DNA of 61,358 bases from an uncultured Oscillospiraceae bacterium (GCA_964418245.1 CAYQKW010000005.1:1-61358), one strand, 5' to 3'. Shown: positions 49,366-61,172, counted from the first letter of the stretch. Notes: generated from the letters alone by a model not told the origin. Made by a program: numbers and translations.

Positions 49366-52300
49366 TTATAATGTATTCATTATATTCAGCAGGCTTTGAT
49401 AGCTGTCCACATCGTGATAGCGCACATTTTCAGTGGAAATTTCGTTGAACAGCTTTTTTGCGCATTTGATTTTCGCTTGCTCAATCGGACGCAGATTAAG
49501 ACTTTCCATTGTGCCTTTCGTTTCGGCAACAAAATAAATATGCTTAACCGCTCCCTCATAAAATGCTATTGCCCAATCGGGCGAATAATTGCCTACAGGT
49601 GTGGGAATGTGAAAACCTTTCGGAAGCTTTGCGTAAACGCAGACTTCGTCCGCCGCATCCAAGCTTTCCGCAAACGTTTTTTCAACGCTGTTTTCCGCCG
49701 AACCGTCAGTAAACACATAATCCTGAATATGCTTTTTTGCCGCAAAAGCTTTTGAAATATCTTTGCCGCATTTTTCTGCCGTGAAAATCGCATTTTCGTA
49801 TTTTCCCTCAATCTCGTTATATGTTATATCAGAAACCACGGCGGCGGCCTTTTCCTCTTTAATCAGCCGTATAACCTTATTTATAAACTCCTCCGGATTG
49901 TATTTATACATTTCTTGCTTGTCACGGCGTATACCCTGCAATATTTTCGCAGCCGTTCTTCTTGTCAGCGTTGTTCCCTCCGCAATTTTTCCTATAAGGT
50001 CATATTTAACCGAGCTTACTTCCGTATGTTCTAACGTCATTGTTCTTGATTTTTCGGTTTTGAACGACTCTCCCCTGCCGATTTCGTATTCATTCATCTC
50101 ATCTTTTTGCCGACCGACCGTTGTTGTATATTGCAGCTGTGCAACAAAAAGCTTGTCGTTGATATGCGATATTGCTTTTTCGATAAGCTCGTTTGAATCG
50201 AAATGCGCCGTATACGCATATTTTTTATTGATTTTATTCCAAAGCTCCTTAAATTCTTTTTTGCGGAAATTATCATTCAGCGGATTTTCCGGCGGTTTTG
50301 TATTGTGTCCGTTGTCATACATCTCGGCAAGTACGCTGTCATCGAAAACAGCTTGTATAAGCTTATGCACACCGTCCGAAATATTTTGCAGTTCCTCCGG
50401 CACAGGCTCGCAGGCTCCGATTTTCACCGCTTCCCGATATTCTTTTGTAACACTGTCGCCATTGTCGATATAATCGTTTTTAATTAAATATCTGTAAATT
50501 AATTTTGCTTGTTTTTCGTCAATAACAACAGGCATATCGTTTATATCTTTAACTGTTTTGCCCACAAAATACTCAATCGACGCCTTTGTCGGTCTGTCAT
50601 AAAGAACGGTTTTTATATCGGACTGCAAATCGCTCACAAATGTTTTATAGCTTTCGCTTGCAATTACGGTGAGTAAATTTACACCGTGAACCGATTCGCC
50701 CAAGCTTTCGGCATCCATTCTGTTGCCGGCTTGATTAACGCACAGCCTAAGCCCCCTGCCAACCTCCTGGCGTTTTGCTGTTTGGCTGTCCGAATGCTTT
50801 AATGTGCAAATTTGAAACACATTCGGATTGTCCCATCCCTCACGAAGTGCCGAATGCGAGAAAATAAATCTCGTAGGCTCCTCGAAGCTGAGTAATCGTT
50901 CTTTTTGTTTCAGAATAAGCTCATACGCCGAAATATCGTCCGAAAATTCACTTCCCCGTTTCAGTTTGCTGTCTATGCTCTTTCCAGTTTTCTTGTCTAT
51001 GCTGAAATAACCGTTGTGAACCTTTTTCACATTGGAGCATTTTCCCTTGAGATATTTTTGATACGGTGTGTCGGAAAGCGTTATATATTCATTTAATATG
51101 CTTATATATTCCTGCTCGAATATTTTTGCGTATTCCCCTTGAATCTCCTCTCCGCTTTCGTCATAGTCCTTATACTTTGCAACCTCGTCGATAAAGAAAA
51201 GCGAAAGACTTTTTATTCCCATATTGAAAAGCTCCTCTTCTTTTTCAAAATGAGACGCAATCGTTTCTCTTATCTGAATACGCCGCATATCTTTTTCCGA
51301 AACGTCGCCCACAACATCTCCCGCGGATATAACCTCCCCGTTCACAAACGTAACCGTACCGCTTATGGGGTCTATTTCGGAAATTGTGTATCCGTCCTTA
51401 TACTGCTCCATTTGTTGCGATATGTAATAAAGATTATCACCGACTCCGAGTATTCTTGTTTCACGATTGATTGACTTGTTATATCCGATTTCAAGCTCAA
51501 TCTTTGCCATGGGCGGCTTCTTTGAGGACAGCACGATTCGTTCCAAAAACAAATACTTGTCCGTTCCTCGGAAGTTTTTAACCTCAAATCCTTTTACCTC
51601 GATTTTCTTAACAAGTTTTTTGTTGAATGCCTCAAGCGCATCCAAAACATACACAAGATTATTTTGCTTTTTGTGAGTTGCCGAATAATTCAGGCAAAAC
51701 AACGGATTAAAATTCTTTAATGCCTTTTGCGTAACATCTCCGCCCATTTTCTGCGGTTCGTCAAGAATAATAATAGGTCTGTTTGCCTTGATAACATCAA
51801 TCGGTCGGCGAGAGCCGAACTCATCACGCTTTGAATAGATGATACGGGCTTCCTTGCTTTTGCCGTCCTCTTTCAGCGACGATGCAAACGCCTGCGTATT
51901 GATTATCATAACATTTATTCCGGCACTTGCGGAAAAGTTGTCTATACTATTTAGATTTTTGCTGTCATACACAAAAAATCTTGCTTTCTTTCCGTAATGC
52001 TCCATAAAATGCTCGGCTGTTATTTCAAAAGTCTTTGCTACGCCCTCACGAATAGCAATACTCGGAACTACAACTATAAATTTGCTCCAGCCGTATTTTT
52101 TGTTAAGCTCAAACATCGTTTTGATATATACATATGTTTTTCCCGTACCCGTTTCCATTTCTATATCAAGCGAACATCGGCCAAAATCTTTTACAAGATT
52201 TGTAGAAAGTTTGATGTTGTTTTCGCTTTGCAGTTTGTGTATATTTATCAAAAGCTGTTCATCTGTCAGTTCCACAATTTCATTTTTGAAACCCGTTTCG

Positions 52301-52485
52301 TTCTCAAGGTCAAGTATTTCTCCGTATTCATCCTCAAACGCAAGCCCAATTTGCGCATTGACTTTTTTCTTCCCCAAATCTCTGCGGTATTCGGAATGCG
52401 TGTGATAGCCTTGTCCGGCAAAAACATCACAAACCGCATTTACCGCATCGGTTTGATATTGTTGTATTTTAAAATTAAATTTCAC
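49366..52485 (-). CDS. res: Type III restriction enzyme, Res subunit (SF2 helicase plus C-terminal PD-(D/E)xK)
   Basis: The N-terminus MKFNFKIQQYQTDAVNAV, motif I ETGTGKT, motif II ILDEPQKM, and C-terminal SPDWAI..FVAETKG. Confidence 0.85.
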   Translation of the reverse strand: MKFNFKIQQYQTDAVNAVCDVFAGQGYHTHSEYRRDLGKKKVNAQIGLAFEDEYGEILDLENETGFKNEIVELTDEQLLINIHKLQSENNIKLSTNLVKDFGRCSLDIEMETGTGKTYVYIKTMFELNKKYGWSKFIVVVPSIAIREGVAKTFEITAEHFMEHYGKKARFFVYDSKNLNSIDNFSASAGINVMIINTQAFASSLKEDGKSKEARIIYSKRDEFGSRRPIDVIKANRPIIILDEPQKMGGDVTQKALKNFNPLFCLNYSATHKKQNNLVYVLDALEAFNKKLVKKIEVKGFEVKNFRGTDKYLFLERIVLSSKKPPMAKIELEIGYNKSINRETRILGVGDNLYYISQQMEQYKDGYTISEIDPISGTVTFVNGEVISAGDVVGDVSEKDMRRIQIRETIASHFEKEEELFNMGIKSLSLFFIDEVAKYKDYDESGEEIQGEYAKIFEQEYISILNEYITLSDTPYQKYLKGKCSNVKKVHNGYFSIDKKTGKSIDSKLKRGSEFSDDISAYELILKQKERLLSFEEPTRFIFSHSALREGWDNPNVFQICTLKHSDSQTAKRQEVGRGLRLCVNQAGNRMDAESLGESVHGVNLLTVIASESYKTFVSDLQSDIKTVLYDRPTKASIEYFVGKTVKDINDMPVVIDEKQAKLIYRYLIKNDYIDNGDSVTKEYREAVKIGACEPVPEELQNISDGVHKLIQAVFDDSVLAEMYDNGHNTKPPENPLNDNFRKKEFKELWNKINKKYAYTAHFDSNELIEKAISHINDKLFVAQLQYTTTVGRQKDEMNEYEIGRGESFKTEKSRTMTLEHTEVSSVKYDLIGKIAEGTTLTRRTAAKILQGIRRDKQEMYKYNPEEFINKVIRLIKEEKAAAVVSDITYNEIEGKYENAIFTAEKCGKDISKAFAAKKHIQDYVFTDGSAENSVEKTFAESLDAADEVCVYAKLPKGFHIPTPVGNYSPDWAIAFYEGAVKHIYFVAETKGTMESLNLRPIEQAKIKCAKKLFNEISTENVRYHDVDSYQSLLNIMNTL

Positions 52486-52508
52486 TTTCGGTCGTTCCTC
52501 CCTTCGGT

Positions 52509-52540
52509 AATTAGGAATGTGAAATTAGTAGTTAGGAATT
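52509..52540. repeat. Left arm of the AGGAATTAGG-type inverted repeat flanking the four-helix-bundle gene
   Basis: aattaggaat at 52509..52518 is the exact complement of attcctaatt at 52905..52914. The inner parts share aattag/ggaat words. Confidence 0.75.
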
Positions 52541-52885
52541 TTGTTTTGTAGTCTTTGTGATAGCTGATAACAGCTTTTGTATTTCAACGCAATCATTGCT
52601 TATGGAATTATATTCCGCTTCGGTCAAATAATCGGTTTCAGACAATAACGCTAACCAATATATGCTTTCCGAACATTCCTTAAATGCAATATACATTTTC
52701 GCCAAAAATTCTTTTTTGCTTATAGCACAATTTGCTTCAGAAACATTTGCACCTATGCTCGTTCCGCTACGAAGTAATTGTTTTGACAAAACGAACTCTT
52801 TCTTTTCGTCACACAAATATTTGTAAAGTTTTACAATGCGTATTGCAAACTTTTTACTTTTTTCAAAAACTATACTTTCTTTCAT
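52532..52885 (-). CDS. Four-helix-bundle protein (23S rRNA intervening-sequence protein family)
   Basis: 117 aa. FAIRIVKLYKYL.., QLLRSGTSIGANVSEA.., KEF..K..IA.KE..E..YWL are typical of this family. Confidence 0.8.
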   Translation of the reverse strand: MKESIVFEKSKKFAIRIVKLYKYLCDEKKEFVLSKQLLRSGTSIGANVSEANCAISKKEFLAKMYIAFKECSESIYWLALLSETDYLTEAEYNSISNDCVEIQKLLSAITKTTKQNS

Positions 52886-52914
52886 TTCTAATTTCTAACT
52901 CCTAATTCCTAATT
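52886..52914. repeat. Right arm of the inverted repeat flanking the four-helix-bundle gene
   Basis: ttctaatttctaactcctaattcctaatt fills the gap between the mod stop and the four-helix gene's ATG. Confidence 0.75.
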
Positions 52915-54961
52915 TTATAAAACCTTTCTTACCGTATCCGGACTATATGTAGCAAATATCTGTTCAAAGTTTGTTGCAACACTATCATCTGCAAAACCGT
53001 TATCACGCATTACGAAATAGTACGGTTGTTTCTTTGCGATTTCTGTTATAAGCTCTGCTGTAATATCTTTGTCAAAACAAGCAATTAAAAAGTTATCCGC
53101 AACATCAAAATATGTATAATTCCTAATTCCTAACTCCTCATTCCTAATTTCAATTTTGCTGCTAAGCAAAATTCCAAGGTCAAGCATAACTTGGAAAAGT
53201 AAATCTTCGGCTGTTCTGTCATCTTTTATGTTATCGACCATATCGTCAAGCATGGACATATTTACGTTCTGCGGATTGTAGTATACATCTTTCATGTTGG
53301 ATGTATCGAGTTTGAGAACACGGAATCCCGTGTCTAATGAGGAGTTTTTTAATGAGGAATTAGTAGTGAGGAATGAGGAATTGTCGGTATTTTCATTTCT
53401 AATTCCTAATTTCTCATTCCTAATTTTTTGTCCTGCACGGCGAATACGCTCTTTACCAATTTCACAAATATTTTTATATCCGGCTTTGTATGCTTCCGAT
53501 TTCACATCGCACGGTTCAGGCAACTGCACCATAATGAACTTTCGAGTACCCCCCCCCGATTCCATTTTTATCCATTTCTTCCGCATTCAACTGCATAACA
53601 GCGTGGGCGGTAGTTGCAGAACCGGAGAAGAAGTCGAGGATAATATCATTATCTTCAACTGATGCCATTCTAAGAAATCTACAAATGAGGGCTGTTCCTT
53701 TTGGATAATCGAAAACAGCACTTCCAAAAAGCTCTTTCACAGCTTTAGCACCATCATTCGTTTCTTCTATCCAAGTAGTATATTTCTGAGTTTTTTCCTC
53801 ACCTTCTAACGGAGCAAATATTTTTTCGTATGCAATCCAATCACCATCTGCATTTTTAATAAACTCAACTTTTCCGTCAGCAATGTTCTGCTTCATGGTG
53901 CTGGCGCCGTGGCGCCAGCACCCGTCAAATTTTACCAAATTTGACGGGCGCTGTTTATCCTTTTCGGTATAAAAAGGATAAACAGCTGTTCCGTCCGGAG
54001 CTATTATTGGATAATACAAATTAGGTCTATCTTCTCTTCTACTGTTTGAACCCCATTTCCTCAATAATTGAGTTTTATAATATCGTCCTTTTTCGCTATC
54101 ATATTTCGGATAGACATCATTATTTTTTATTTCTTCTCCAGCTGAAAAATGTTCTTTGTTTTTGGCATAACAGAGAATGTACTCGTGAACGGCAGCATAA
54201 TATTTGCTATCCTGACGACCACCACGTCCTTTCCAGTTTATTATCGCAATAAAATTACTTTCTCCAAATATATCATTGCAAACTTTTTTCAAATTTTCTA
54301 CTTCATTATCATCAATGCTGATAAAGATTACCCCATCATCACTCAGCAAATCCTTTACCAACTTTAATCTGGGATAAATCATATTCAGCCAATCGGTATG
54401 GAAACGACCGTTATTTTCAGTGTTCTTTTCGAGTTTTCCGACTATTTGATTTCCGTCTGCGTCATAATTTCCGCTAACCTCGTCCCATTCCTCATTTCTC
54501 ATTCCAAATTCATCATTATAAACAAAGTCATTACCCGTATTGTACGGAGGGTCTATGTAAATCATTTTGATTTTGCCAAGATATGTTTCTTGCAATAATT
54601 TCAACACTTCCAGATTATCGCCCTCGATATAGAGGTTTTCGGTTGTGTCAAAATCTACGCTTTCCTCACGGCAAGGACGGAGCGTTTTATTTATCGGAGC
54701 ATTCGCCAGCAAAACAGACTTCTTCTTGTCCGGCCAGGTGAACTGATACCGTTCCTCTTTGCCGTCAACAACCTTTGTGTTTATTTCTTGCATAAGTACA
54801 TCTTTATCTATTGCACGAATAACCTCGCCCGTTGTTTCGTCAATTGTTTCCGTCACCGCATTCGGAAACAGCTCCGCCAGCTTTCTGAAATTCTCATCGG
54901 CTTTGTTCGCCGTTTGCATACGCAAATGTAATTCGGAATTATTTGTCGTTTCATTTTTCAT
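52915..54961 (-). CDS. mod: Type III DNA methyltransferase Mod, currently out of frame at a G9 tract (two ORFs: 53516..54961 and 52915..53586)
   Basis: DPPYNTGNDF (motif IV), then LDFFSGSATTAHAV (motif I). The frame breaks at GIGGG. The downstream frame continues TRKFIMVQLPEP..IGKERIRRAG..DTGFRVLKL. Confidence 0.85.
53118..53155. repeat. Solitary arm of the AGGAATTAGG-type element inside mod (translated as IRNEELGIRN)
   Basis: aattcctaattcctaactcctcattcctaatttcaatt. Confidence 0.7.
53351..53425. repeat. Empty hairpin copy of the AGGAATTAGG-type element, in frame inside mod
   Basis: The arms are 53351..53382 and 53395..53425, with the loop gtcggtattttc. It is translated as GIRNEKLGIRNENTDNSSFLTTNSSLKNSSL. 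Confidence 0.75.
53549..53557 (-). repeat. Homopolymer G9 (C9 on the + strand) at the mod frame break
   Basis: Counted directly: ..gagta ccccccccc gattcc... Confidence 0.9.
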
Positions 54962-55012
54962 TGTTTTATTCCTCTTTCAATATTTTTTACTCTTATGACA
55001 CGTATTTTTAAA

Positions 55013-56122
55013 TTAAATTTCATACTCTACATCTCCGTCTCTTTCTTTTTGTTGGAGATAGAATATAGCCTTTTGTGCTTCAATTTCTGCTTTTAACTCT
55101 TCTTCCGTGGGGAGATAGAGCTTATACTTGCTTGCGAATAACTGCTCATTACCGTGCATTACAGAATACTTTGCAATATCTTCATCCGTGTCGGAGCAAA
55201 GCACGATACCTATAGTCGGATTATCCCCCTCACTGCGTTTCAGCTCATCATACATTCTGATATACATATCCATTTGACCTACATCTTGATGAGTGATTTT
55301 CTTTGTTTTAAGGTCAATCAACACAAAACATTTAAGAATGTAATTGTAGAAAACGAGGTCAATAAAATAGTCTTCTTTTTCAGTTTGGATATGTTGCTGT
55401 CTTGCAACGAAAGCATATCCTTTGCCCATTTCCATAAGGAACTTTTGTATGTTGGAAATAATGCTTGTTTCAAGCTCCGTTTCCGTAAAAGCCGTGTTTT
55501 GCCCTAATCCGAGAAATTCTGCAATAACAGGATTTTTAATAAATTCAAGTTTGTCAGCTTGATATTCTGCGGTTAAGTCTTTCATTTCATTTTCTACAAG
55601 TTCTTTCTTCTGAGATTGCAGCAAGCGATAATAATATTGCGATGAAATATTTCTCTGCAACGTTCTTACGCTCCAAGTCTGCTCGGCAGCTTCTTTTGCA
55701 TACCATTCACGGGCTTTATCGTCGTTTACCTGTAACAACGTTCTGTAATGCGACCAAGAAAGCAACGGAGTAGATTTTCCACACAGTGAGTGGAAAATGT
55801 TTGGGAACATTTTATAAAATGAATAAAAGCTGTAAAGATTTGTTTTTGTAAAGCCTTTTCCGTAAGTTTCGGTTAAATGTTTTGACAAATTTTTTATAAT
55901 ATTCAAACCGTAATTTTCTGTACGGTTTGAATTGCCGAGTTCTTCTTCAGCAATTCTGTATCCTATAAGCCAATTGCGTTGTACAAGCATTGTATTAACA
56001 GCACTGTGAACTGTTTTTTGCGTTGTTTCAATCAATTTCTGCATATCTGCATAAATATCTTCGGTTTTTTTATAATTCATCATAAGATTATTATTGCCTG
56101 TTTCAAACATTCTATTTTCCAT
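55013..56122 (-). CDS. YhcG-like PDDEXK nuclease-domain protein (DUF1016)
   Basis: 369 aa. The C-terminus EDYFIDLVFYNYILKCFVLIDLKTKKITHQDVGQMDMYIRMYDE is typical of the family. Confidence 0.75.
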   Translation of the reverse strand: MENRMFETGNNNLMMNYKKTEDIYADMQKLIETTQKTVHSAVNTMLVQRNWLIGYRIAEEELGNSNRTENYGLNIIKNLSKHLTETYGKGFTKTNLYSFYSFYKMFPNIFHSLCGKSTPLLSWSHYRTLLQVNDDKAREWYAKEAAEQTWSVRTLQRNISSQYYYRLLQSQKKELVENEMKDLTAEYQADKLEFIKNPVIAEFLGLGQNTAFTETELETSIISNIQKFLMEMGKGYAFVARQQHIQTEKEDYFIDLVFYNYILKCFVLIDLKTKKITHQDVGQMDMYIRMYDELKRSEGDNPTIGIVLCSDTDEDIAKYSVMHGNEQLFASKYKLYLPTEEELKAEIEAQKAIFYLQQKERDGDVEYEI

Positions 56123-56140
56123 GATTTACTCCTTTCCGGA

Positions 56141-56296
56141 TTATAATGTAATGTAGTTTTTCCTGTCTGCCGCAGTTGTTCGGAATTTCCGAACAACTGT
56201 ATTTTCATCAAGCTCTCCGTCTGCTAAGATATTTTTTATATGTTCGCTAATGTTGAATTTACTTGTTTTATATAATTCGGAATTCCGAATTATTTC
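56141..56296 (-). pseudogene. RhuM-family gene remnant (51 codons)
   Basis: My translation is EIIRNSELYKTSKFNISEHIKNILADGELDENTVVRKFRTTAADRKNYITL*. It matches the conserved RhuM core (..NIS.HIKNI..EGEL.. ..F.TTA.DGKNY) and has no start codon. Confidence 0.55.
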
Positions 56297-56907
56297 TCAC
56301 TCCTCAGTTTCAATTCTTTTATCTTCTGCACCAGCTCAAATTTTTTCTTCGGCTGTTTTTCGGCTCGTGCCTGTTTTTCAAGTCGTGCGATTTCTTTTTG
56401 CAGTTTTTCGGTTTGTTCCATTGATTTTATTTGTGCGGTAAGCGGCATTGCCTTATCTTTTTTTATACCGGAAACCTGCAAAATAAAATTTTCATAAACT
56501 TCATCAAGGCTAATGCCCTCTATTTTCAACCGCAATTCATTTTCGGTCTGCCATTCCGTATGGAAATACTTAATAAAACCGCCGTCTTTGTGACAAAGCC
56601 AAATCTGATATTTATCCGAATATTCGAGTATATATACATTATTATACGGAATAACTTTATCAATCTGTTTTATGGCGGAAATATCAAGTTTATTACCGTT
56701 CAGCATAACTTTGAAGATTTGTATTTCCGAAACGGTTTGTCCGCAGTTTATGTTTATTGTATCCTGAGATAATTTATATGCCCATTTGATTTCCTTTATT
56801 TGTTCGGCAAAGATTTTTTTCATTGCCGCCGTTATTGACATATTCTCATAAAATTTCTGTTTCGGTATTCTTTTGTTAAGTTCTGCCGCTCTCGGAAATT
56901 CAAACAT
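56290..56907 (-). CDS. DUF4391-family protein
   Basis: MFEFPRAAELNKRIPKQKFYENMSITAAMKKIFAEQIKEIKWAYKL..EIQIFKVML..IPYNNVYILEY matches my memory of DUF4391 N-terminal conservation. Confidence 0.7.
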   Translation of the reverse strand: MFEFPRAAELNKRIPKQKFYENMSITAAMKKIFAEQIKEIKWAYKLSQDTININCGQTVSEIQIFKVMLNGNKLDISAIKQIDKVIPYNNVYILEYSDKYQIWLCHKDGGFIKYFHTEWQTENELRLKIEGISLDEVYENFILQVSGIKKDKAMPLTAQIKSMEQTEKLQKEIARLEKQARAEKQPKKKFELVQKIKELKLRSEK

Positions 56908-57241
56908 AAGATAACTCCTTACCGTCGTCGCACCAACTCTTGCTGTCTATATAATAAATCAACTCAACCATACCGTTGTATCTTCTTTTTTCGATTACAT
57001 TTTTAATCGGAGGATATTTCATAAAACAAAACCATATTTCCTCATAATCATATACCGGAGAACATCTCGAACAGGGTTTCTTTTTTGAATATCGTTCATA
57101 TTTTGAACTCGGTTTATAGCATTCATATTCCTCACCGTACCGCATAATAAATTGCCGCTCCTTAAAGGTTTGTTCGCCAATCATGTCCGTTATAAGTTTT
57201 TTCACATGATTACGGCTTATTCCCGACAAACCGTAATTCAT
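56900..57241 (-). CDS. 113-aa protein of unknown function (possible N-terminal HTH, 5 Cys)
   Basis: It overlaps the DUF4391 start by 8 nt. It contains LSGISRNHVKKLITDMIGE and C-x15-C-x2-C. Confidence 0.5.
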   Translation of the reverse strand: MNYGLSGISRNHVKKLITDMIGEQTFKERQFIMRYGEEYECYKPSSKYERYSKKKPCSRCSPVYDYEEIWFCFMKYPPIKNVIEKRRYNGMVELIYYIDSKSWCDDGKELSYV

Positions 57242-57283
57242 AATTTCATTGCATACTTTATTATAAATATAACCGACACTTTC

Positions 57284-57736
57284 TTACGAGTTAATTATTT
57301 CATTAATATTATCAATCATTTCCTGTGCAGAGTGGGACATCAGCTCTTGTCTTAATATATGCGAAAATCTAATCTTCTTTTTTACATTATCCGAAGAATT
57401 GATTTTTCCTTTTTGAAATTCACAAGCTCCGATAATAACAACATCATCAATCACGAACTCTGTAATGCAAGGATATTTAACCGCAGAATAAATTATATTC
57501 CCAACTTTGTATATATCGGCTCTGCTTTTTAACACAACTTCAAAGAATTGTATTTCTTCATATCTTAACGTATCGGTTATTGTTGCCGATGTATTCGATA
57601 TTCCCGGTTTTATATTTCCCGATAAGATAATTTTATCTATATTGCCGTACACCTCATTGTTTTTATCCGTTATAAACTTTTCTTTCGGGATATTTATATT
57701 TAATTTACACATATCCGGAATTTTTATCAGTTTCAT
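57284..57736 (-). CDS. Short divergent DUF4391-like protein (150 aa)
   Basis: It shows the same pattern as the paralogue: INIPKEKF.., IDKIILSGNIKP.., EEIQFFEVVLKS.., YPCITEF. It begins 4 nt after the SNF2 stop. Confidence 0.45.
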   Translation of the reverse strand: MKLIKIPDMCKLNINIPKEKFITDKNNEVYGNIDKIILSGNIKPGISNTSATITDTLRYEEIQFFEVVLKSRADIYKVGNIIYSAVKYPCITEFVIDDVVIIGACEFQKGKINSSDNVKKKIRFSHILRQELMSHSAQEMIDNINEIINS

Positions 57737-57740
57737 AATA

Positions 57741-60700
57741 TTATTCCACCACCAAAAAAGTAATCAATTCAAAATCGTTCAGTCCTGTAAAATTATTCAT
57801 CAAAAGAGTTGTTCCTCCCGGTTTAAAAAGACTGTCGATGTCGCATTCTTCCTTAACTTCAATAATGGAGGATATGGCATCTCCCAAAAGTTTTGAGAAT
57901 TTTGACATATCTCTGCCGTCTTGAGTTTCTTTGTTAAATTCACGATAAACCTCTGCAATAGGTTCTGTTTTGCCTTTGCACAAACAACGCAATTTATCAA
58001 GCATTTTTTTCGGCGACAAATGGTCGCAAACAACCGCTCCGTCTGCTGTGATATACACCATATAAAACGGGTGCAATCTGTTTTGTTTATCAATATTAAC
58101 GCTGTTTGAACGGTTTTTGAGTATATATATCACACCCGGAGGATTTTCTTCTGTTGAGGGAACAACGGAATGCAAACCATATGGTGTTTTGTCGATATTG
58201 GGATGATATTTTGTATATTCAAGCAAATCAAGCCTAAATTCATTAAGTCCCAAATCCATAATCGAAATTCCGCTTGACATATCCTCAATATCCACAACTT
58301 CTTCTTGTAATCGTTTCAGCTGTGCTTTTCGATATTCAAGGTCTGTTTTTTCTTCATCACTCAAAAGATTGTCATCGCCGGTTGCCGTCATATCGACAAT
58401 TTTCATTCTTGTTTCAACTTTTGCTTTAAGGTCAATATACTCATCAAGAGTAACATCGGGACAAAAATTCACAAGCTGTATATATTTATTTTTACTTCCT
58501 ATACGGTCAATTCTGCCGAACCGCTGAATTATGCGGACAGGATTCCAATGTATATCATAATTTATAAGATAATCGCAGTCCTGCAAGTTTTGTCCCTCGG
58601 AAATACAGTCCGTTGCTATAAGAATATCAATATCGTATTTTGGTATGCTTTCAAACATATCTCTGTCTTTCGATATGGGAGAAAAGCAAGTAAGCACTGT
58701 ATTTAAGTCGCATTTTAATTTCGGAATTGTTGTTTTTCCCTCAACAGAACCGGTAATGAGTGCGGTTTCAAGTCCGAAATTATTTTTTGCAAATTCGCTG
58801 ACATTTTCGTACAAATAATCGGCGGTATCGGCAAAAGCGGTGAAGATAATCACTTTTTTATTGCCTGCATTAATAGGATTTTCGATTTTATTTACCAAAA
58901 CAGAAAACAACTTCTGCAATTTGCTGTCGTGTTCGGGTGTTATATCCCCGACCATCAAAGTTAAAAGTTCAAGAATATCTTTATCTTTTTCAAGGCTTGT
59001 TTTCCAGGATTTATAGTCCATATCCGCAAGGCTGATTTTCACTTTTTTGCCAAAAGAAAAAAGTTCGTCACCGTTTTGGTCATCATTGTCAAATTCGTCA
59101 ATGTTTGTGATGTCTGTTAAGTCAAGATTGACTTTTGAAACATTATCGTATTCTTCAATGGTGCTTATGGTACTTGTAATTAAGTCCTTAATTCTTGTCA
59201 ATGTCAGGTTGAAAGAATATACCGAACTTTCCATACGTTTCATAAGATTGATTGCCATAAGTCTGCGAAGCCCTTGTTCACGGTTGGCTTGAGTGAACCC
59301 GACATTTATTTTATCGTCACCGAAAACTTCTTTATATTTTTCAATTCTGCTCGGCAGCAGATAATGTGACGGTGTATAAATCGAAAGCGAAAGCTGTGTG
59401 AGCTGTTCAAATATTTCATTATAGTTTATCACTTTTTCCAAATCAGTCAAACAAGGGCTTAGAGAAACAGGTTTCAGGCGTAACGGGAATGTTCCTATTT
59501 CTTCCATATCGTAATATTTTTGTATGTGTTTTCTGGAACGGGCAATCGTTACCGAATCAAGCACTTCAAAAAAGTCAAAATCCAGCATTTTAAGCAAACT
59601 TTCCGTGGTTCTTTCTGCCGGATTCCATTTGCTCCACGTATTAAAAGCTCTTTGTGCGTTTTTAAAAATTTCGTTGATTGAGTGATTTGTGTTCAATTTA
59701 TCATCAATCAGCTCCGTATTCCCCTCATATGCAAGCGCAAGCTGATTTTTAAGGTCGTTAAATCTGTTGTTTACGGGTGTTGCGGAAAGCATAAGTACTT
59801 TTGTTTTAACACCGGTACGAATAACCTTTTTAAGAAGTTTCAAATATCTGTTTTGCTTTTCGTCATCATTACCGGAAACTTTTCCGCCGTTTCGGAAGTT
59901 ATGCGATTCGTCAATCACAACAAGGTCGTAGTTTCCCCAATTAAGCCTATCCAAATCAAGACCGTTTGATTTTCCGCTTGCACGATTCAAATCGGTATGA
60001 TATAAAACATCATATCGTAATCTGTCGGCGGCAATCGGATTATTTATGTAATTATCTTTATATGTATTCCAGTTGTTCGAGAGTTTTTTCGGACACAGCA
60101 CAAGAACGGATTTATTTCTGTTTTCATAATATTTGATAACCGCAAGAGCAGTAAATGTTTTGCCTAATCCGACACTATCGGCTAAAATACAGCCGTTAAA
60201 TTTTTCGAGTTTATTTATAATGGCAAGTGCGGCATCTTTTTGAAAATTGTAAAGTATATTCCAAATTTTGCTTTCCTTAAATCCCGTTGCTTCGTTAGGC
60301 AAATCATCATCGCTTATATCGTTCAAAAATTCGCTGAATATGTTATACAGCGTAACAAAATATATAAAATCGGGAGAATTTTCGTTATATGCCGCCGTGA
60401 TGCTTTCAATCACTTCATCCGTAACTGTCTGCAAATGATTTTTATCGTTCCAAATTTCATTGAAACTTTTCAGCAAGGTTTGAGCCAAACTCTCATCTTT
60501 CACAATAGCGGTGCTTATGGTGTTTCCTTTTTCACATCCAATTTCAACCGCCGTAAATTCCTTTATCGGAGTATATCCTATATTATCAATAACCATCCTG
60601 CCTTGAATTGTTTTATCGCCGGTATTGGACTTGAACGTTACTTTTTTCTTTATCCACTCCGCACATTCTTTTGCTATTGCTTTTTGAGTCAGTTTGTTAC

Positions 60701-60974
60701 GCAGTTTCACTTCATATTCCGTTCCGTAAAGATTTTTTTCGCGATTAAGCCGAGGAATATAAAATTCACGGTTTTCTTTTTTCTCTTTTTCGGCAATAAA
60801 CGCCGGAGATGTAAATATAAAACGAAGTTCATCAATATTGGTTAGTTCGTCTTTCAGCTCTTGAAACGCATAAATCGAAAAGCAAGCGGCGGCAATGGCA
60901 ACTTTGCTTCCGTCGGTTATTTCGACTTTCAAATCATCTTTTAATGTTTTCGATACATTATCTATAATTTCCAT
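57741..60974 (-). CDS. SNF2-family helicase with a roughly 250-aa uncharacterised N-terminal domain
   Basis: Motif I DSVGLGKT, motif II VIDESHNFRN and SATPVNN are present. The C-terminal motifs are ATDCISEGQNLQ and QRFGRIDRIGS. The start is chosen at MEIIDN, 8 nt after GGGAG. Confidence 0.85.
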   Translation of the reverse strand: MEIIDNVSKTLKDDLKVEITDGSKVAIAAACFSIYAFQELKDELTNIDELRFIFTSPAFIAEKEKKENREFYIPRLNREKNLYGTEYEVKLRNKLTQKAIAKECAEWIKKKVTFKSNTGDKTIQGRMVIDNIGYTPIKEFTAVEIGCEKGNTISTAIVKDESLAQTLLKSFNEIWNDKNHLQTVTDEVIESITAAYNENSPDFIYFVTLYNIFSEFLNDISDDDLPNEATGFKESKIWNILYNFQKDAALAIINKLEKFNGCILADSVGLGKTFTALAVIKYYENRNKSVLVLCPKKLSNNWNTYKDNYINNPIAADRLRYDVLYHTDLNRASGKSNGLDLDRLNWGNYDLVVIDESHNFRNGGKVSGNDDEKQNRYLKLLKKVIRTGVKTKVLMLSATPVNNRFNDLKNQLALAYEGNTELIDDKLNTNHSINEIFKNAQRAFNTWSKWNPAERTTESLLKMLDFDFFEVLDSVTIARSRKHIQKYYDMEEIGTFPLRLKPVSLSPCLTDLEKVINYNEIFEQLTQLSLSIYTPSHYLLPSRIEKYKEVFGDDKINVGFTQANREQGLRRLMAINLMKRMESSVYSFNLTLTRIKDLITSTISTIEEYDNVSKVNLDLTDITNIDEFDNDDQNGDELFSFGKKVKISLADMDYKSWKTSLEKDKDILELLTLMVGDITPEHDSKLQKLFSVLVNKIENPINAGNKKVIIFTAFADTADYLYENVSEFAKNNFGLETALITGSVEGKTTIPKLKCDLNTVLTCFSPISKDRDMFESIPKYDIDILIATDCISEGQNLQDCDYLINYDIHWNPVRIIQRFGRIDRIGSKNKYIQLVNFCPDVTLDEYIDLKAKVETRMKIVDMTATGDDNLLSDEEKTDLEYRKAQLKRLQEEVVDIEDMSSGISIMDLGLNEFRLDLLEYTKYHPNIDKTPYGLHSVVPSTEENPPGVIYILKNRSNSVNIDKQNRLHPFYMVYITADGAVVCDHLSPKKMLDKLRCLCKGKTEPIAEVYREFNKETQDGRDMSKFSKLLGDAISSIIEVKEECDIDSLFKPGGTTLLMNNFTGLNDFELITFLVVE

Positions 60975-61172
60975 AGTATAAACTCCCATCGTACGTTTAT
61001 AATCGCAAAATCAAAGCCCCCGGAAACAAACTTTGTTTCTAATGTGTATAACCTATATAATATCGCATATATCACCGTTGCGTTCTGCGTATATTCTCAC
61101 GAGAACCGAAATTGCCGTATGTTTATTCTTGTTAATCTTTGTCATTACCGACGGTGATGCTTCTTTTTGTGC

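Follow-up and report, generated by a model that had tools for sequence, protein, structure and literature searches.

A nine-guanine run that puts a Type III mod gene out of frame as a candidate phase-variable switch in an uncultured Oscillospiraceae bacterium

The Type III mod gene in a 61,358-nucleotide stretch of DNA from an uncultured Oscillospiraceae bacterium (GCA_964418245.1 CAYQKW010000005.1:1-61358; hereafter the window) is genuine and is split at a run of nine guanines. Our favored explanation, to which we assign a probability of about 0.5, is that this G9 represents the OFF state of a slippage-prone and in principle reversible run. It takes as its premise that the dominant genotype truly carries G9 and that mod is out of frame as a result.

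The run occupies positions 53549..53557 on the minus strand, which is the coding strand (C9 on the plus strand, in the context ...GAGTA CCCCCCCCC GATTCC...), and falls at codon 470 of 681, where the upstream frame reads it as GGG GGG GGG. The 5' part of mod (53516..54961, minus strand) is a 481-aa ORF that matches PF01555 (N6_N4_Mtase) and carries DPPY, the target-recognition region and FxGxG. It proceeds through ...DFFSGSATTAHAVMQLNAEEMDKNGIGGG, then through 10 out-of-frame codons (YSKVHYGAVA) to a stop, so that its end reads ...NGIGGGYSKVHYGAVA. Mod homology goes on in the next frame, in the minus-strand ORF at 52915..53586 (...GGGTRKFIMVQLPEP...VRKVL); the 3' part of mod proper is 52915..53548 on the minus strand (TRKFIMVQLPEP...VRKVL), and the mechanical ORF start lies further upstream, at 53586. 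Edits made in silico show that G8 or G11 yields a single open frame of 681 aa, while G10 remains closed. The translation and these edits bear out the original prediction, which had placed the run exactly at the mod frame break and the stop 10 codons after it, and had expected G8 to join the two ORFs into a 681-aa Mod of the beta class; the motif order read from the translation, DPPY before FxGxG, is that of the beta class. Any 1-base deletion within 53543-53557 would also restore the frame. Among these deletions G8 appears the most parsimonious, since it yields GGGTRKF and a T before RKF/RKY is present in a homologue (L056).

Profile matches agree with this reading of the two ORFs. The N-terminal piece matches positions 5-434 of 621 of the PADLOC MTase_III profile (E = 5.6e-154) and the C-terminal piece positions 433-620 of 621 (E = 5.2e-57); the two are therefore complementary halves of one Type III Mod, broken at G9. 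The match of Mod to PF01555 has E = 2.4e-37, and the restored 681-aa protein can be aligned over its full length with about 200 Mods and shows no other lesion.

[quoted passage not shown] The res gene (49366..52485, minus strand) is intact and encodes 1039 aa with ResIII helicase and RE_endonuc domains; the REase_III profile covers it at positions 1-984 of 989 (E = 1.1e-286). Between mod and res, domain matching identifies a small four-helix-bundle gene of the 23S_rRNA_IVP family (52532..52885, minus strand). Upstream of mod, also on the minus strand, domain matches place a DUF1016/YhcG nuclease gene (55013..56122), a DUF4391 gene (56290..56907) and an SNF2 helicase gene (57741..60989), and ORF and domain readings add a 113-aa ORF and a 150-aa DUF4391-like ORF within 56900-57736. 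A literature search found little published on DUF4391. The 150-aa ORF matches the first half of DUF4391 only, and its lone relative among 5.8 billion clusters is 202 aa long; the full DUF4391 gene lies downstream of it, and it may itself be a remnant or a diverged paralogue. No similarity to DUF4391 was found in the 113-aa orphan ORF, which comes directly after the 150-aa one and had been considered as the missing half of the short gene.

The loci of the closest homologues share a common gene order, helicase - (IVP) - DUF4391 - variable gene - mod - variable gene - res. At one homologous locus (L100) the operon adjoins relaxase and NikA genes, and we therefore regard the island as a mobile defence island. 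Across this locus, a second one (L102) and the window itself (49366-60989), the slot before mod is filled by a TIR protein, an unknown 190-aa protein or DUF1016, and the slot after it by RhuM or the four-helix-bundle IVP gene. A separate repeat of about 32-37 nt, of the type AGGAATTAGG (translated as IRNEELGIRN), occurs at 52880-52916, 53119-53150 and 53391-53427; two of these copies lie in frame inside the 3' part of mod, and the third falls where mod meets the IVP gene. The repeat is also found in frame in two homologous Mods (P0011 and P0075), and in gut metagenomes words matching it are found at contig depths of thousands.

Long G/C runs are rare in this genome. In the window no G/C run of 8 or more occurs besides the C9 at 53549..53557, the next being a single C7, in keeping with the predicted status of the run as the longest G/C homopolymer there. 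The whole assembly, a MAG of 1.61 Mb in 53 contigs that is 74% complete, contains 34 G/C runs of length 6, 7 of length 7, none of length 8 and 2 of length 9. If this decay with length is extrapolated, runs of at least 9 would be expected about 0.2 times in the genome and about 0.01 times in a stretch the size of the window. Furthermore, GGG is the rarest glycine codon, making up 7.8% of Gly codons in long ORFs, and three GGG codons in a row are therefore no accident of codon usage. Among other homopolymers, the MAG holds a T38 run in AT-rich, apparently intergenic DNA (C6:15645-15682).

The only other G9 in the MAG lies on the minus strand of another contig (C17:1040-1048; locus L104:1040-1048), where it splits an Acyl_transf_3 gene, putatively encoding an acyltransferase of the surface-polysaccharide type, after codon 34, between MTCNVKTNRYANIDILKCLCAFMVVCLHNPLQLKGGG and VIITTLSRVAVPIFFM... 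Here too G8 or G11 restores the frame. An intact paralogue at C1:41880-42812 is 74% identical and collinear with the G8 state. This second run is probably real, because the same site is exactly C9 in contig X24, which comes from an unrelated study and makes a one-off assembly glitch less likely. Surface-type acyltransferase genes are a classic class of contingency genes. The contingency-locus criterion, several repeat-bearing genes per genome, can thus be set against two loci, mod and Acyl_transf_3, in a MAG that is 74% complete. Both G9 runs are out of frame and each needs exactly -1, a coincidence for which switching, a systematic over-call and two one-way +1 slips would account equally well.

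The over-call is the first of the alternatives to be weighed: the true length would be G8, mod would be intact and ON, and the MAG consensus would be one base too long. We consider this unlikely, although several observations fit it. Beyond the shared -1, reading both runs as G8 would turn the length spectrum into 34, 7 and 2, which decays smoothly. Problems with poly-G do exist in these data, since one contig begins with C50 (C13:1-50), presumably a poly-G read-tail artefact of two-colour chemistry. Breaks near the G runs are also seen in all of the public contigs from X1, X2, X20 and X28. Among these, the Logan contigs that hold mod sequence (X1 and X2) have a depth of only about 3-5x and none spans the mod run; the perfectly matching X1 contig begins inside it, at 53551. 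Such breaks near both G runs are suggestive, but at this depth contigs break every few hundred bases anyway.

Other evidence argues against a length error. The second run has its C9 length in the independent contig X24 as well, and no excess of frame-fusing indels is seen at 1,738 A/T runs of at least 7. Frame-fusing +/-1 changes occur at 1.7% of 1,781 homopolymers, compared with 1.6% of 3,000 random sites, a control by which error-prone assembly was rejected as a general explanation. In short-read data, homopolymer indel errors are minority events that lean toward deletions, and a majority +1 at two separate sites would be unlikely given this behavior. A true G8 would, moreover, still be a hypermutable run within coding sequence.

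Homologues were returned from 80 genomic loci (at most 68% identity) and 120 protein clusters (at most 79% identity), and at this site they read NAEDGG[HNK]RKF (with the flank, NAEDGG[HNK]RKFIMVQLPE), with G runs of 6 or fewer. Relative to the four closest full-length genes, the nucleotide alignment gives this mod exactly 22 additional nucleotides, namely a 21-nt insertion encoding EMDKNGI (GAAATGGATAAAAATGGAATC; 53558..53578, minus strand, placement +/-2 nt), found by homologue comparison in this allele only, and one extra G. The insertion and the extra G directly join the conserved Gly-Gly codons, so that the loop NAE-DGG-HRKF has become NAE-EMDKNGI-GGG-(T)RKF. The loop carrying the run also differs in length between the solved Mods 6K0W and 4ZCF, and a G8 Mod with the longer loop would plausibly be active, with the insertion tolerated.

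Two metagenomic contigs come closer to the window than any of these homologues. One (X4), about 91% identical, is 22 nt shorter at the insertion/run site. The other (X2, 198 nt) is identical to the window over 53396..53496 (101 nt) and then turns to the canonical ...QLPEETDEKS..., with 70 letters (97 loose minus 27 rejoined) where the window has 92 (53497-53588) and with no insertion. Even very close alleles are therefore without the insertion and the run, and the X2 contig suggests mosaic recombination between mod alleles in this part of the gene. The original prediction had itself named the lack of a tract at this position in orthologous genes as evidence against it, and this is what was found in every homologue (80 loci and 120 proteins) and in both closer contigs: the tract is not kept at the same site across mod alleles.

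No second copy of the allele, ON or OFF, was found among 5.8 billion protein clusters, in which the 481-aa product forms a singleton cluster, and genome contigs and protein clusters held nothing above 79% protein identity. Exact-pattern scans of metagenome contigs for the insertion and the allele returned matches that were unrelated (L090 was checked), and 400 genomes of the class returned matches to the insertion at chance level only, equal to a reversed control. In plasmids and phages, identity to mod over any substantial part of the gene was about 72% or less. No donor for the 21/22-nt insertion was found within the bacterium's own genome. A long out-of-frame G run does occur in a homologous Type III mod from elsewhere, an Oscillibacter sp. 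MAG from goat reticulum (L053:6247-6257), where a G11 lies in the variable linker after ...ERIRRAGKQIVSKSQM, at a different site from the G9 of the window, and G12 or G9 restores the frame. That locus also carries a second mod copy.

Such uniqueness could also be the mark of a one-way inactivation, in which mod was destroyed by a 21-nt insertion together with an additional G, or by one event of 22 nt, and became a recent pseudogene whose run is a mutational scar and hot spot rather than a switch in use. This, too, we think improbable. The insertion and run being confined to one allele, and absent from some 200 homologues and the two closer contigs, is what it would predict, and the homologous operon beside relaxase and NikA genes in L100 places the system in mobile DNA, from which R-M genes are often lost. 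The companion gene offers a similar hint: it has an intact paralogue, and its run is G9 in two independent samples, so that it looks fixed rather than flickering. In addition, the DUF4391-like gene upstream is short against its single relative (150 aa versus 202 aa). However, no further lesion is present in Res or in either half of Mod, and any inactivation must therefore have been very recent. A G9 must also slip back at some rate; irreversibility would need a second lesion, and none was seen.

A further alternative is that a working Mod is made from G9 as it stands, through RNA-polymerase slippage, a +1 ribosomal shift or separate initiation of the downstream part. The insertion does supply in-frame ATGs for a C-terminal piece at 53586 and 53565; the latter, created by the insertion in the downstream frame (ATGGAATCG at 53565..53557), is preceded by a purine-rich GGAAG. 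The same -1 correction at both G9 runs would also suit recoding. Polymerase slippage is, however, documented for A/T rather than G/C runs, and +1 shifts need a stalled codon; the G/C composition thus disfavors the former, and no stalled codon was seen for the latter. The sequence is unique, so there is no conserved signal, and the locus was not found in any metatranscriptome among searches of runs of any kind. Recoding or a split enzyme is accordingly highly improbable.

Under the favored explanation, a reversible switch caught in its OFF state, a long G run would have arisen in one allele from the conserved Gly-Gly codons in the surface loop that separates motif I from the strand after it, with a 7-residue insertion fused to the run. 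In the G9 state, translation past residue 481 would be lost, and with it the last catalytic motifs and the C-terminal domain. Without Mod there would be no methylation, and presumably no restriction either, despite the intact res, since a Type III Res is active only when complexed with Mod; in EcoP15I-type enzymes Res depends on Mod. The original prediction had held that the OFF state silences the restriction arm. The broken mod and the intact 1039-aa Res agree with it, and the step from one to the other comes from this established knowledge. A run of nine would be long enough for slipped-strand mispairing during replication, and G8 (ON) and G10 or G7 (OFF) cells should then arise continually in the gut population, making the locus a reversible ON/OFF switch of which the OFF state was sequenced. 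On this reading run length would vary, and the switch may have a selected role. A change from OFF to ON with an intact Res could potentially be self-damaging on an unmethylated genome.

The rate at which such a run would slip depends on mismatch repair, and the published switching rate for 9-nt runs derives from Campylobacter, a bacterium without it. In this MAG (74% complete) neither MutL nor MutS1 was detected; the only related protein found is of the MutS2 type, has 789 aa and an Smr tail, and is encoded at C1:50721-53090. MutL is present in 13 of the 13 other genomes of the family that were searched, including 11 of 11 among the high-quality ones, and its absence here, with that of MutS1, is most likely an assembly gap. 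The idea of a mutator lineage was rejected, given MutL in the relatives, the incompleteness of the MAG and the lack of any excess of broken genes at A/T runs. Mismatch repair is thus probably present in the host, and slippage may be orders of magnitude slower than the Campylobacter-derived figure, which is quoted as 1.8-13.5 x 10^-3 for 9-nt runs in a survey that takes G[9] as its in-silico length threshold for calling a mod gene phase-variable (PMC5909438).

The run sits exactly at that threshold. The proposal of a candidate phase-variable switch therefore stands as far as length is concerned and loses ground on the orthologues, which are without a tract at this site. In favor of a switch, the run is made of a disfavored codon, both G9 runs of the genome fall in genes of textbook contingency classes, no damage is seen elsewhere in the system, and an Oscillibacter homologue has an out-of-frame G11 of its own. 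Against it, the run is of minimum length, is unique to one allele and lies beside an odd insertion, and its companion is G9 in two samples.

That poly-G tracts can switch Type III mod genes is textbook biology, with H. pylori modH and others as examples, and on this general point the original prediction was correct. The nearest known systems are modH, modJ and modL of Helicobacter pylori and modU of Campylobacter upsaliensis, which share with this gene a beta-class N6-adenine Mod of Type III and a G homopolymer within the ORF that sets the reading frame, so that the OFF state truncates Mod (PMC5909438). Their tracts are conserved over many alleles and strains and their variation has been observed, whereas the present run is of minimum length, is confined to one allele and is known from sequence alone. 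It also lies late in the gene, at the codon given above, unlike theirs. The hosts differ as well: epsilonproteobacteria are without MutS1/MutL, whereas the gut anaerobe studied here is Gram-positive and belongs to a group in which its relatives carry MutL.

The modA phasevarions of Haemophilus influenzae and Neisseria resemble the switch proposed here, with a Type III Mod that slippage turns ON and OFF and that is accompanied by res, but use tetranucleotide repeats near the 5' end, whereas this gene has a G9. A methylation-dependent regulon has been demonstrated for modA, while the present case is a reading of genomic sequence. In modA systems res is often already inactive; here it is intact. 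To our knowledge, repeat-based mod switching has so far not been demonstrated in this taxon, and the only switches we know to have been demonstrated so far in mismatch-repair-proficient Gram-positive gut anaerobes are inversion-based. A 2025 gut-microbiome preprint on epigenetic phase variation likewise concerns inversions, not repeats. EcoP15I and EcoP1I (PDB 4ZCF) share the Mod/Res architecture, the dependence of Res on Mod and an alignable loop after motif I, but have no repeat tract and no switching, and the operon of the window adds upstream SNF2 helicase, DUF4391 and DUF1016 genes to that architecture.

Closer in taxonomy is an entry in REBASE, M.RspKB18ORF6790P. It is listed under a Clostridium name as a predicted SSR-bearing mod in a 2018 survey of that database (PMC5909438), and the view of the original prediction that such variation was undescribed in gut Clostridia must be softened to that extent. 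The Gram-positive mods of the survey (from Streptococcus, Lactobacillus saerimneri and M.RspKB18ORF6790P itself) resemble this one in being in-silico calls made on the same length criterion, but the Gram-positive groups treated there mostly carry pentanucleotide repeats of the GCACA type rather than a G run (PMC5909438). The comparison with the present gene is thus one between predictions. Judging from the REBASE acronym, we take M.RspKB18ORF6790P to come from a mouse-gut Clostridia isolate.

Taken together, the two G9 runs, one in a mobile R-M/defence island and one in an acyltransferase paralogue, and the G11 in a rumen Oscillibacter Mod lead us to suggest, tentatively and with some doubt, that gut Clostridia build poly-G contingency loci de novo on Gly-Gly codons, and that slippage-driven ON/OFF control of restriction, possibly also of a methylation regulon and of surface decoration, is recurrent among mismatch-repair-proficient Gram-positive gut anaerobes. 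If the run does not switch, the result is a routine annotation point: mod should be marked as carrying a homopolymer frameshift, and this genome recorded as having an inactive R-M system. If it does switch, one gut commensal strain would restrict foreign DNA at some times and accept it at others, and the island would gate the entry of phages and plasmids. Depending on the motif methylated, the strain might also alternate between two states of gene expression. Repeat-driven methylase switching would then extend from host-adapted pathogens to uncultured gut Clostridia.
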